DNA from: a virus
Lineage: Duplodnaviria > Heunggongvirae > Uroviricota > Caudoviricetes
Reading direction: 5' to 3' (one strand)
IMG/VR virus record: IMGVR_UViG_2684623059_000005
DNA length: 46,081 nucleotides
Positions 33,001 through 36,000 of the stretch are shown here, piece after piece. The position numbers are program-made. Position 1 is the stretch's first letter, and every line of letters begins with the position of its first letter.

Positions 33001-36000
33001 AAAGCAGAGTGCTTATGAATGATCGCCTGCCCGAAGGTTGTTATTCCTGCACAGCAATTTTGCAAAAAAGACGCTCATTCATAACCCAAACGTCTTTCAG
33101 TCACTCCGGGCTTTCCCATCATCGCAGACTGAAAGGCTCTAACTGGAGCGGGCAGCGGGAATCGAACCCACATCATCAGCTTGGAAGGCTGAGGTAATAG
33201 CCATTATACGATGCCCGCATATGGTGCCGACTACCGGAATCGAACTGGTGACCTACTGATTACAAGTCAGTTGCTCTACCTACTGAGCTAAGTCGGTACT
33301 GGACCGCCACCGGGGACTCGAACCTCGCACTTAAAGGGTTGAAGCTCCTTCCTGATGAGCTAGTGGCAGTTGGTGGCCCTTGCTGGATTTGAACCAGCGA
33401 CCTGGCGATTATGAGTCGCTCGCTCTCACCACTGAGCTAAAGGGCCGCGCGCAGAATAATAACGTTACGGAATTAATACTGCAATATCTTCAGAAGGCCT
33501 GATTAAATGCTGTTTTTCACTTGTCCACCAGCGTGTTTACTGTACTGCACCAAGTTTACAGGTACAAAAAACCCGCTCAGTGGCGGGTTGCTATCACAGC
33601 TATATATTTACTTATTATGCCGTTACTAACATTTATCTTCGACATATAATCGAAAACAAGGTTTGCTTAAAACTCTGCTTTCATTTTATCCGGGAATTTT
33701 TTATTTGCAGCATAATAACTACCAAGTATATAAGCGTTCATTTGCTGCTCTACATCAACCCGACATGCAGCACTAGAACAAGCACCACTGATAAGCCCAA
33801 AAGAACTCCCTTTAGCAGAGAGATCAGCTTTAATTTCCTCTACAGTGTTTTTCCCCATAGCAACTACACACCCTGTCACAATATATCTAGCCTTCACATC
33901 ATCCATGCTAAGGATAGTAGTTTTCGCAATTTTGCTGTATCCATCATTTTTATAAACATCCATGGCAAACGCACGGCAATCTGTATAATACGGACTTGCT
34001 TTAACTTGCGAATACTCAGGTAATTTCATACCTGCACAACCAACTAAACAAAAACCTATCGCTGCTATTAATACCTTTTTCATTACAGTCATAACCTAGA
34101 AGCATCATTGAAACTAATTTATTAAATAACCATCGAGTTTCTGGAATACAGACGTTAACCATCTCTCCAAAATCTAAAAGATAATAAGAAAAAATGTTTA
34201 ACGCACCAATCCATTTCATAGTTTCATGAGACATCAGGCACAAAAAAACCCGCTCAGCGGCGGGTTTTTGACATTTACCAACGGTAGACATACAAGGCCC
34301 ATCGTTGAGAAAATCTTATCCATATTTTTTGAAAAATGCAAGTATTACGTCGACATCTTCGGCGAAAATTATCTATCTTGTCACTTTTCTCAATTGCGAT
34401 TCAGCATACGCTTCTTCCTGCCAGCACTTTGTAACCAGTTTATTAATAACGTCTGCATATCCTTTGTACCACTGATAATCCGTCAGGTCCGGTACCAGTT
34501 TCTGGACATGATGCCGCGCCAGTGTGGTTGGTAAACGGCTAAACCGGTTGCCATTGCAACGCCCACAAATCTTATAAACAGGCACACCATGAAGCCGGGT
34601 TCTTTTTTCATCCAGGACAATACCTTTACCCTTACACCCTCTGCACGCTGTGCTGACTTCTCCCTTACCATGGCAATGCTGACATAGTTCCTTCACCCAC
34701 TCTTCCTTGATAACAGATTCCCCGCTTCTGGAGTGTTTCACCACTTCGCGCAATACATTATGAAATCCAGTACCAGCACAATGCTCACAGCGAGCCTTAC
34801 TTGCCGCAGACCTGGAATAATCAGCAAAGGCAAAATTCACAAGGTAAGGGATGATCTGTAACCGGGTTTCTTCACTCAATTTGTTCAATGTCGGGTTATC
34901 CAGTGCCATCGCGTAATTGAGCAGACCTTCAATCGCAAATTGAGGATCCTGAACACCAACTTTTGCCAGGAATAAGGCAAACCCAAGCGGTGCTTTCGAC
35001 TGCACCATCCCCTGCGCAGCCATCACATCCGTAATCGTTAAACCACCTGAGCCTGTCGCCGGTGCGTCATCGCTCAATTTTGGAGATTTTGGGGAGTAAT
35101 ATTTTGGTAAGGCTTCAAGGTTCATGCTCGTTCTCCACTTACGCCAATACGCCAATTGCCAGCGCACGATCGATAAAACGAAATATCAGCTCCAGCTGAG
35201 AGCCATACTTCTCTTCAAATGCCACGGTATCCGCATGCAGCTCGTCGTGATGCTTTCTGCACAAAGGCAACACAAAGAGGTCATGCGCTTTTGTTCCCAT
35301 TCCACCCTGACCGTGACCTATCAGGTGGTGGGGATCATCAGCGGGCTTTCCACAACATGCACACGGCTGTGTCTTAACCCAGCGCGTGTACTTATCATTA
35401 ACCCAGCGGCGACGTTTTGGGCGTAACATAAAAGACTCCGGCGACTCCGGATCCACTTTCAGCGCCAGCACCTTTTTCGCTTTATCCTGGATGATGCTGG
35501 TGGCAGGAACCGAAGGCACAAGGTCACTTTCCCGGGTGACAGACGGCACAACAGGCTTTGGTAATCTCAGTGCCTTACGGGCTGCACTTTCCGGTAAGGC
35601 ATCCGCCAGGTCATTACGAATCAGCCACCAGCACAGTTCCGGCATTGTCACAACGTGACTGTCATCAAAACCGAGATCCCGACGCACAACAGACAACACC
35701 CAGCGGGCACAGTTATCCGTTGCCATTGATTCCAGCCGTTCCGTGAACTGATCGCGCAGCTGGTTATCGCAGTGCCAGCACAGACGGATTGCGCCCGGCG
35801 CGTGTCGCATTGTGGTCATGTTCTCGCTGTGCCAGTCGGAATGAGGCCACTGGCAGCCTTTTTCACGAAGTAACCAGCTTTCAAGACATTCCACGCCACC
35901 AGCACGACGGATCACTGCCTCATTGCGGAACACGGCCCGAACGGCAGGATCATCCGCCAGCGGTTGTGATGCCGCCGGAACGGCACCACTGGCGAAAGAT

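Follow-up and report, generated by a model that had tools for sequence, protein, structure and literature searches.

The 46,081-nucleotide (nt) stretch of DNA of IMG/VR virus record IMGVR_UViG_2684623059_000005, referred to here in its whole length as the window, represents a lambdoid prophage whose late genes are located on the minus strand, and it carries a cluster of four tRNA-like sequences between the late promoter and the holin gene. Three of these were called as tRNA genes by ARAGORN, all on the minus strand and within positions 33144-33446, and the order on that strand is ileZ (anticodon CAU), a pseudo-tRNA of 70 nt, a Thr(UGU) gene and a Gly(UCC) gene (Table 1). Scored with the tRNA model RF00005 of Rfam (gathering threshold, 29 bits), the CAU gene reached 72.5 bits (E=4.5e-14), the Thr gene 67.6 and the Gly gene 62.1, all three thus scoring as canonical tRNAs. 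A first-pass annotation of the window, which relied on manual folding, had delimited four tRNA-like sequences, and its limits coincide exactly with the ARAGORN and Rfam calls; its four assignments of anticodon or structure were also correct according to ARAGORN, Rfam and alignments, as was the placing of the cluster between late promoter and holin, with the antiterminator gene Q and a pR'-like promoter upstream and the holin gene downstream. No canonical Arg tRNA was called by ARAGORN at these positions.

The cluster belongs to a known kind of element, the lambdoid Q-proximal tRNA cassette, of which a minority Ile-Lys-Thr-Gly variant is already annotated in hundreds of genomes. The window carries, judging from its sequence, a rare allele in which one gene is a pseudogene and another is probably weakened; the presumed host of the prophage is Escherichia albertii. 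We consider it likely that the cassette, with its four slots, lies in the variable stretch that separates Q/pR' from the lysis genes, that these slots are modules of different origin, partly decayed, and that it supplements the codon supply.

Over its 76 nt, the CAU gene of the first slot shows 100% identity to ileZ (tRNA-Ile) as annotated in phage 933W, for which the GenBank annotation NC_000924 was used, and an identical gene is labelled tRNA-Ile by the Prokaryotic Genome Annotation Pipeline (PGAP) in E. coli genomes. These identities assign it to the Ile2 type rather than to Met or fMet, and the pairs C4-G69 and C5-G68, which we take to be TilS determinants, are present. Such a tRNA would need the host TilS (lysidine) to read AUA. 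The anticodon stem carries an A27:C43 mismatch; since it is also found in the ileZ of 933W, it is a shared feature and not a sign of decay.

Table 1. Coordinates of the tRNA cassette and of neighbouring features in the window
Feature	Position	Strand	Evidence
tRNA-Ile2 (CAU), ileZ	33371-33446	-	ARAGORN, Rfam, identity to 933W, PGAP
Pseudo-tRNA, 70 nt, Lys(UUU)-type argN scaffold	33300-33369	-	Alignment to intact 77-nt genes
tRNA-Thr(UGU), thrU copy with private G1 to A change at 33297	33222-33297	-	ARAGORN, Rfam, thrU alignment
tRNA-Gly(UCC), glyT copy with private C to U change at 33170	33144-33218	-	ARAGORN, Rfam, glyT alignment
Late antiterminator Q	34373-35167	-	Pfam PF03589 Antiterm, 6.9e-54; antitermination protein Q in relatives
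pR'-like late promoter: TTGCAT (34341-34336), 17-nt spacer, TAAGAT (34318-34313)	within 34242-34341	-	Sequence reading
tR'-like hairpin: ACCCGC-CGCTGA-GCGGGT, then T7 (U-run)	34267-34242	-	Seen by eye, confirmed by folding
orf141, conserved phage open reading frame (ORF) outside the cassette	33667-34092	-	phrog_4748, 8.9e-91; hypothetical in relatives
Terminator-like hairpin with U-run, gap between orf141 and tRNA genes	33570-33589	-	Pattern scan; fold -13.5 kcal/mol, z=-2.7
Putative tRNA promoter pT: TTGCAG, 17-nt spacer, TATTAT	33456-33484	-	Hexamers and spacing of 933W 'pT; putative tRNA promoter' conserved
Hairpin with U-run after the cluster, possible weak terminator before the lysis genes	33063-33095	-	Minimum free energy (MFE) fold of 33040-33143 (-)
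Holin, first lysis gene past the cassette	32637-32852	-	PHROG holin families, 6e-35; holin S/EssD in relatives

The second slot and its Lys(UUU)-type relatives

The 70-nt sequence of slot 2 was not called by ARAGORN and gave no match to RF00005 even at E<=10, and a permissive Rfam scan of positions 32900-33700 yielded nothing credible for it, the only hit being tRNA-Sec (14.8 bits, E=7.6). Another known RNA was discarded as its identity, the tRNA-Sec match being at chance level and the matches to 'Plastid-ycf2' being the antisense of tRNAs. Shuffled sequences reach an MFE as good as that of the 70 nt (z=-0.53). The acceptor, D and T arms are kept and the anticodon stem has lost its 3' strand, so that slot 2 does not form a cloverleaf; with ARAGORN and Rfam silent and that strand deleted, its initial description as a decayed gene without a foldable anticodon arm proved accurate.

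Three relatives, the phages PhiR47_1 and vB_EcoM-606R7 and E. coli ST95-32, hold in slot 2 a gene of 77 nt that is a tRNA-Lys(UUU) according to ARAGORN and to the depositors or PGAP. As compared with this gene, the window has lost 7 nt (TTTA[AGTTGAG]AGTGCG to TTTAAGTGCG); the deletion falls between two AGT triplets, its junction lying at the AGT microhomology at about 33329-33331, and two further substitutions affect the D-loop and position 26. An identical slot-2 allele, with the deletion and the same two substitutions, is found in E. coli IHE3034. A junction-specific query detected the deletion in 5 of 5426 complete E. coli genomes, in which it is unannotated, and in one IMG/VR contig; it gave no match among the GTDB species representatives, which indicates that the allele is rare. 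A sequencing or assembly artefact was considered and rejected, since the exact junction recurs in the five independent complete genomes and in the IMG/VR contig, and the deletion is thus an inherited, real pseudogene allele.

The 77-nt gene is about 80% identical to argN of 933W (anticodon UCG), with which it has the acceptor, D and T arms in common. Over 18 distinct variants of this argN scaffold the cloverleaf is 95.5% paired, and compensatory double changes distinguish the Lys-type from the Arg-type at 7-67 (U-A to C-G), 28-44 (C-G to U-A) and 31-41 (G-C to A-U). The compensatory changes and the paired cloverleaf indicate that the tRNA was under structural constraint, and presumably functional, when its anticodon was switched. 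Several oddities mark the common Lys-type, namely C33, an A:C mismatch in the T-stem, and U73 as the discriminator base; U33 is near-universal in tRNAs. Its Rfam score is 40.4 bits, as compared with 54.8 for argN of 933W and 53.2 for a rarer Lys-type, that of locus L016 (L-numbers label the loci compared, most of them from IMG/VR), which has a canonical CUUUUAU loop and perfect stems. A standard tRNA-Lys(UUU), with UUU in a 7-nt loop, a 5-bp stem and A73, is not present in the window, in which UUU is kept and the stem is deleted, and even the intact relatives have U73 and C33. Other anticodons also occur at this position: L038 has the argN scaffold with anticodon UCU, and in L028 an Arg(CCG) gene is followed by a different Gly(UCC).

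Slot 2 is, on these alignments, a pseudogene of a UUU-anticodon sub-lineage of the argN scaffold, killed by the 7-nt deletion. The scaffold would first have acquired the UUU anticodon together with compensatory stem changes, giving the Lys-type tRNA; in the lineage of the window and IHE3034, slippage between the AGT repeats would then have removed 7 nt, and two more substitutions would have followed. The first-pass annotation had held that the positions of the expected Arg tRNAs are occupied by a decayed gene and a Thr-like gene. This stands in so far as slot 2 is an argN homologue, but a direct decay from an Arg tRNA does not, the ancestor being of the Lys(UUU) type.

The Thr and Gly genes and the host thrU operon

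Almost all E. coli chromosomes contain a 99.3% match to the 154 nt spanning the Thr and Gly genes, split into two pieces that are located 359 nt apart and cover the tRNA-Thr, tRNA-Tyr and tRNA-Gly genes of the thrU-tyrU-glyT-thrT-tufB operon. This host operon contains the same Thr(UGU) and Gly(UCC) sequences, including the A52:C62 mismatch that is native to thrU; the Thr and Gly copies of PhiR47_1 are identical to host thrU and glyT, and those of the window are one base off each. The phage arrangement differs from that of the host in having a spacer of 3 nt where the host has tyrU and 209 nt of spacer, in lacking thrT and tufB, and in having the genes under (predicted) phage promoters. Slots 3 and 4 would have been taken from the host operon as thrU and glyT, with tyrU deleted. 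In the IMG/VR locus L119, ileZ and the Lys gene precede a thrU that still has the host spacer TCAAGTCC after it, and then tyrU in its 5' half, up to the anticodon loop, at which the sequence diverges; this locus is a relic of the capture of thrU-tyrU-glyT from the host. A mutated argO was rejected as an identity for the Thr-like gene on account of its near-identity to host thrU and its poor alignment to argO. The suggestion that it was the product of the decay of an Arg gene is thus contradicted, as it is a copy of thrU in which one base is different.

The G1 to A change of the Thr gene and the C to U change of the Gly gene are absent from the other 17 Thr-bearing loci compared (18 in all), and at full identity they occur in no complete E. 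coli genome. The determinants described for bacterial threonyl-tRNA synthetase (ThrRS) are G1-C72, C2-G71, G35 and U36 (PMC9976931, Table 1). The Thr gene of the window has A1:C72 in place of G1-C72, with C2-G71, G4-C69, G35 and U36 present, and with the change the Rfam score is 67.6 instead of 73.8 bits and the MFE -18.8 instead of -22.8 kcal/mol. Because the G1-C72 determinant of ThrRS is destroyed, the tRNA-Thr of the window is probably weakened. For glycyl-tRNA synthetase (GlyRS), the determinants are U73, G1-C72, C2-G71, G3-C70, C35 and C36 (PMC9976931, Table 1), every one of which is present in the Gly gene; its private change converts a C-G pair of the T-stem into a U-G wobble and can be regarded as harmless.

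Both the A1:C72 first pair and the T-stem mismatch (A52:C62) that had been noticed in the Thr gene by manual folding are present in the alignment. They are two of the four A:C mismatches of the cassette, the others being A27:C43 in ileZ and one in the T-stem of the pseudo-tRNA. The earlier remark that several stems contain such mismatches was right, but taking them as signs of decay was not, since two of the four are native: by comparison with 933W and with the host, ileZ A27:C43 and Thr A52:C62 are native features, and Thr A1:C72 is the sole private lesion among the A:C mismatches.

Distribution, modularity and decay of the cassette

A total of 120 IMG/VR loci were retrieved by the exact 3' end of ileZ, and ARAGORN was run on the 520 nt downstream; with the reference loci, these made 127 segments. 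After ileZ, argN(UCG)-argO(UCU) is found in 61 of the 127 segments, a gap followed by argO in 31, Lys-Thr-Gly in 15, pseudo-Thr-Gly in 3 (the window, IHE3034 and L010), Lys-argO in 3, argN only in 3 and nothing further in 6, with 5 singletons. Of the 421-nt cluster region, 80% or more is present in 555 of the 5426 complete E. coli genomes (ca. 10%).

The cassette of 933W and enterohaemorrhagic E. coli (EHEC), ileZ-argN-argO, occupies the same site, with Q, pR' and terminators before it, the lysis or stx genes after it and ileZ in first place; it shares with the window an identical ileZ, the conserved hexamers of the putative tRNA promoter pT and the argN scaffold in slot 2. However, slot 2 of the window has a UUU-type loop (CCUUUAA) and is deleted, whereas that of 933W is Arg(UCG); argO (UCU) is absent from the window, with the host-derived copies of thrU and glyT in its place, and no stx gene follows the cassette. 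The alignment to 933W that had been proposed at the outset therefore agrees for ileZ, which is identical, and for slot 2, which is argN-homologous, but not for argO, instead of which Thr and Gly are found. In the literature library searched, no paper named ileZ, argN and argO together. The same four slots, in the same order and with the same spacing, are present in PhiR47_1 (PV340566), vB_EcoM-606R7 and, according to PGAP, about 550 complete E. coli genomes, with 96.5% identity over 421 nt, and these Ile-Lys-Thr-Gly relatives also have the flanking Q, orf141 and holin genes in common with the window. They differ from it in having an intact 77-nt Lys-type gene, G1 in the Thr gene and C in the Gly T-stem, the window being distinguished by the 7-nt deletion and two private tRNA substitutions. 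The prophage of IHE3034 (NC_017628) is in one of the five genomes with the deletion allele, and PGAP annotates only Ile, Thr and Gly in it. It shows 5 differences from the window over 421 nt, with G1 in the Thr gene and a private Gly change of its own; the prophage is otherwise different and has another host species, and no NleG cargo was found in the 8.4 kb examined.

A decay in place, as the first-pass annotation had suggested as possible, would have converted argN into the pseudo-tRNA and argO into the Thr-like gene. The argN homology of slot 2 and the fact that ileZ-argN-argO is the commonest arrangement among the segments are in its favour, but it is refuted for slot 3 by the single-base difference from thrU and the poor alignment to argO, slot 2 comes from a widespread intact Lys(UUU)-type intermediate, and the additional Gly gene is left unexplained; we regard this course of events as highly improbable. 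An assembly from modules of different origin, as proposed above, is the account that we retain.

Lesions of at least four types affect slot 2 across the loci: deletions of 7 nt and, in Stx2c phages, of 11 nt, a rearranged non-tRNA form of 80 nt, and a fusion of argN and argO. L102, L029 and L056 have a hybrid gene whose 5' half comes from argN and whose 3' half comes from argO, with the joint at the anticodon loop; it apparently arose through a deletion caused by recombination of one Arg tRNA gene with the other. In about 27 of the 127 segments (L111, L112, L121, L100, L114 and others) the argN slot is occupied by a conserved sequence of 80-81 nt that is not called by ARAGORN; both halves of the acceptor stem are kept and the middle is replaced (…GGAAGAGCAGACGACACGATAACAGGGTTGTTGGTGCGGGGGCGGGTCCCC…), and it may be a decayed tRNA or a different small RNA. 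Many Thr and Gly copies carry private changes, L101 has an inserted base, and L052, another copy of the cassette, shows a compensatory change in the acceptor stem.

It could be argued from this that the cassette is a neutral relic, hitch-hiking in a recombination-prone region, unselected here and decaying gene by gene. One gene of the window is dead and another has a broken identity pair, at least four independent types of slot-2 lesion have accumulated across the loci, and the private changes of the Thr and Gly copies, as well as the inserted base of L101, would be expected of such a relic. On the other hand, ileZ is invariant in all the recovered loci, which were retrieved by its exact 3' end, and is identical in full length to that of 933W; the Gly gene keeps all its identity elements, and its sole change preserves pairing; the change in L052 is compensatory; and the codons of the surviving tRNAs are among the most enriched (see below). 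On balance, a wholly unselected cassette seems unlikely to us.

Possible roles, neighbouring genes and host

The three surviving tRNAs would help to decode AUA, ACA and GGA, which are minor codons ending in A, and the Gly tRNA would also read GGG. The prophage over-uses AUA, ACA and GGA, above all in its effector genes, a low-GC block at 4.5-9.4 kb, beside the integrase gene, that encodes four NleG proteins and one member of the Pfam family IpaB/EvcA. Among these NleG genes, two ORFs with a GC content of 0.35, 6064-6555 (+) and 6570-7121 (+), have no Pfam or PHROG match and are possibly uncharacterised effectors. Per 1000 codons, and with a 50-kb E. coli sample (non-ribosomal genes), not the E. 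albertii genome, as the host reference, ATA amounts to 10.3 in all window genes, 37.6 in the effector block and 5.5 in the host; GGA to 14.3, 23.0 and 6.9; and ACA to 14.0, 21.6 and 8.5, respectively. Ranked by log-enrichment against the same sample, ATA is third, GGA fourth and ACA tenth among the 61 codons. This enrichment fits a role in codon supply, with a presumed fitness benefit.

Several points weigh against this role. In addition to the choice of host reference, the two most enriched codons, AGG (rank 1) and AGA (rank 2), have no phage tRNA here, and AAA, at rank 40 of 61, is not enriched, so that the original value of the Lys tRNA is unexplained by codon supply. The Thr and Gly copies duplicate host genes and, on their sequence, would add dosage only. 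The promoter and the terminators of the cassette are consensus-level predictions, and weak as such, and the frequent decay of slot 2, together with the private Thr and Gly mutations, suggests weak selection on much of the cassette. As for the idea, put forward in the first pass, of a tRNA set tuned to the AT-rich effector cargo, the enrichment of ATA, GGA and ACA lends it some weak support, but AGG and AGA are unserved, AAA is not enriched, and the same cassette recurs in such strains as IHE3034, which has the deletion allele too, and ST95-32, both of which we take to be effector-less strains of extraintestinal or avian pathogenic E. coli (ExPEC/APEC). Tuning to the cargo, only partly compatible with the codon counts and not specific, was therefore rejected, and these observations indicate a general lambdoid module.

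A different function could be considered in view of the anticodons involved. Lys(UUU), Thr(UGU) and Asn(GUU) are the three targets of PARIS AriB, cleavage by which is abolished by the change of U39 to A (PMC12409363), and variants of tRNA-Lys, -Thr and -Asn from phage T5 neutralise PARIS (PMC11464382, PMC12409363). In lambdoid phages of the SfI and P21 types, genes for Asn(GUU) and Thr(UGU) tRNAs follow Q (PMC3636060). The cassette might then serve in counter-defence, the window representing a lineage that lost a nuclease-resistant Lys tRNA. The tRNAs that recur at the Q-proximal position of lambdoid phages coincide exactly with the AriB targets Lys, Thr and Asn; the AriB site is absent from the intact Lys-type of the relatives, which has U36AAGUU41 and another scaffold altogether; the Asn and Thr copies of SfI (L132, JX509734; positions 739-894) are devoid of U39; and codon supply does not explain a Lys tRNA whose codon is not enriched. 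Like T5, the Ile-Lys-Thr-Gly cassette brings UUU and UGU anticodons on a phage, and its intact Lys-type lacks the AriB site as the tRNA-Lys of T5 does. In contrast to T5, however, the Lys-type gene of the window is dead and its Thr gene has the host sequence at the site, with the full AriB site UAAUCA kept, so that neither would withstand AriB; moreover, T5-like phages are virulent and the lambdoid phage is temperate. An AriB-target anticodon without the site U36AAUC|A41 is found only in the relatives, and the competence of the common Lys-type is doubtful, given its C33, its T-stem A:C mismatch and its score of 40.4 bits. Host-identical Thr and Gly genes would contribute dosage only, and neither Gly(UCC) nor Ile2 is reported as a nuclease target in the literature cited. 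An anti-PARIS function was thus rejected for the tRNAs of the window itself, and the surviving ones do not, by their sequences, fit a counter-defence cassette, an explanation to which we give little credence. With a similarly low expectation, the Lys(UUU) gene on the argN scaffold and the Asn and Thr genes of P21/SfI-type phages could be candidate countermeasures of temperate phages against AriB or PrrC of E. coli and E. albertii, and the Q-proximal slot a hotspot of counter-defence, a function that would have been lost in the window.

With regard to its surroundings, the pR'-like promoter and the tR'-like hairpin are located directly downstream of Q, as in 933W, and the hairpin following orf141 and the one following the cluster are at positions analogous to terminators annotated in 933W, the latter after argO. 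The putative pT ends 9 nt upstream of ileZ. Transcription would probably proceed from this conserved promoter of the cassette itself and, after induction, also by Q-antiterminated read-through from pR', and host RNases would process the transcripts. A promoter pattern scan gave 5 promoter-like sites, as compared with 5.0 in shuffled sequence, and the terminator pattern scan did not list the tR'-like hairpin, which seemingly lies within its criteria; these regulatory parts are thus weak predictions, based mainly on conservation of the 933W annotation. The ORF orf141, which has no Pfam match, is low in GC and rich in AAA codons (92 per 1000) and is followed by a terminator-like hairpin of its own, so that it looks like a moron. 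The holin gene is followed by a DUF1327-like ORF and then by the endolysin gene. On the chromosomal side, the integrase gene adjoins dusA, and the flank at 1-3749 (dusA/qorA) is about 93% identical to E. coli; a 30-mer of the dusA flank was found only in E. albertii among 185,579 species representatives. Both observations indicate that the host of the prophage is probably E. albertii.

Since tRNA cassettes downstream of Q in lambdoid prophages have long been described, as in the 933W record, the present findings have little consequence for this locus as such. What is gained is a clear account of how such a cassette may be assembled, from an ileZ that is shared, an argN scaffold with a switched anticodon, and thrU and glyT captured from the host, and of how it decays through repeated independent lesions in slot 2. 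The coincidence of anticodons with the PARIS targets is the one lead of wider interest, an indirect one that concerns the intact relatives. In general, the cassette advises caution against reading the tRNA sets of phages as finely tuned to their cargo.

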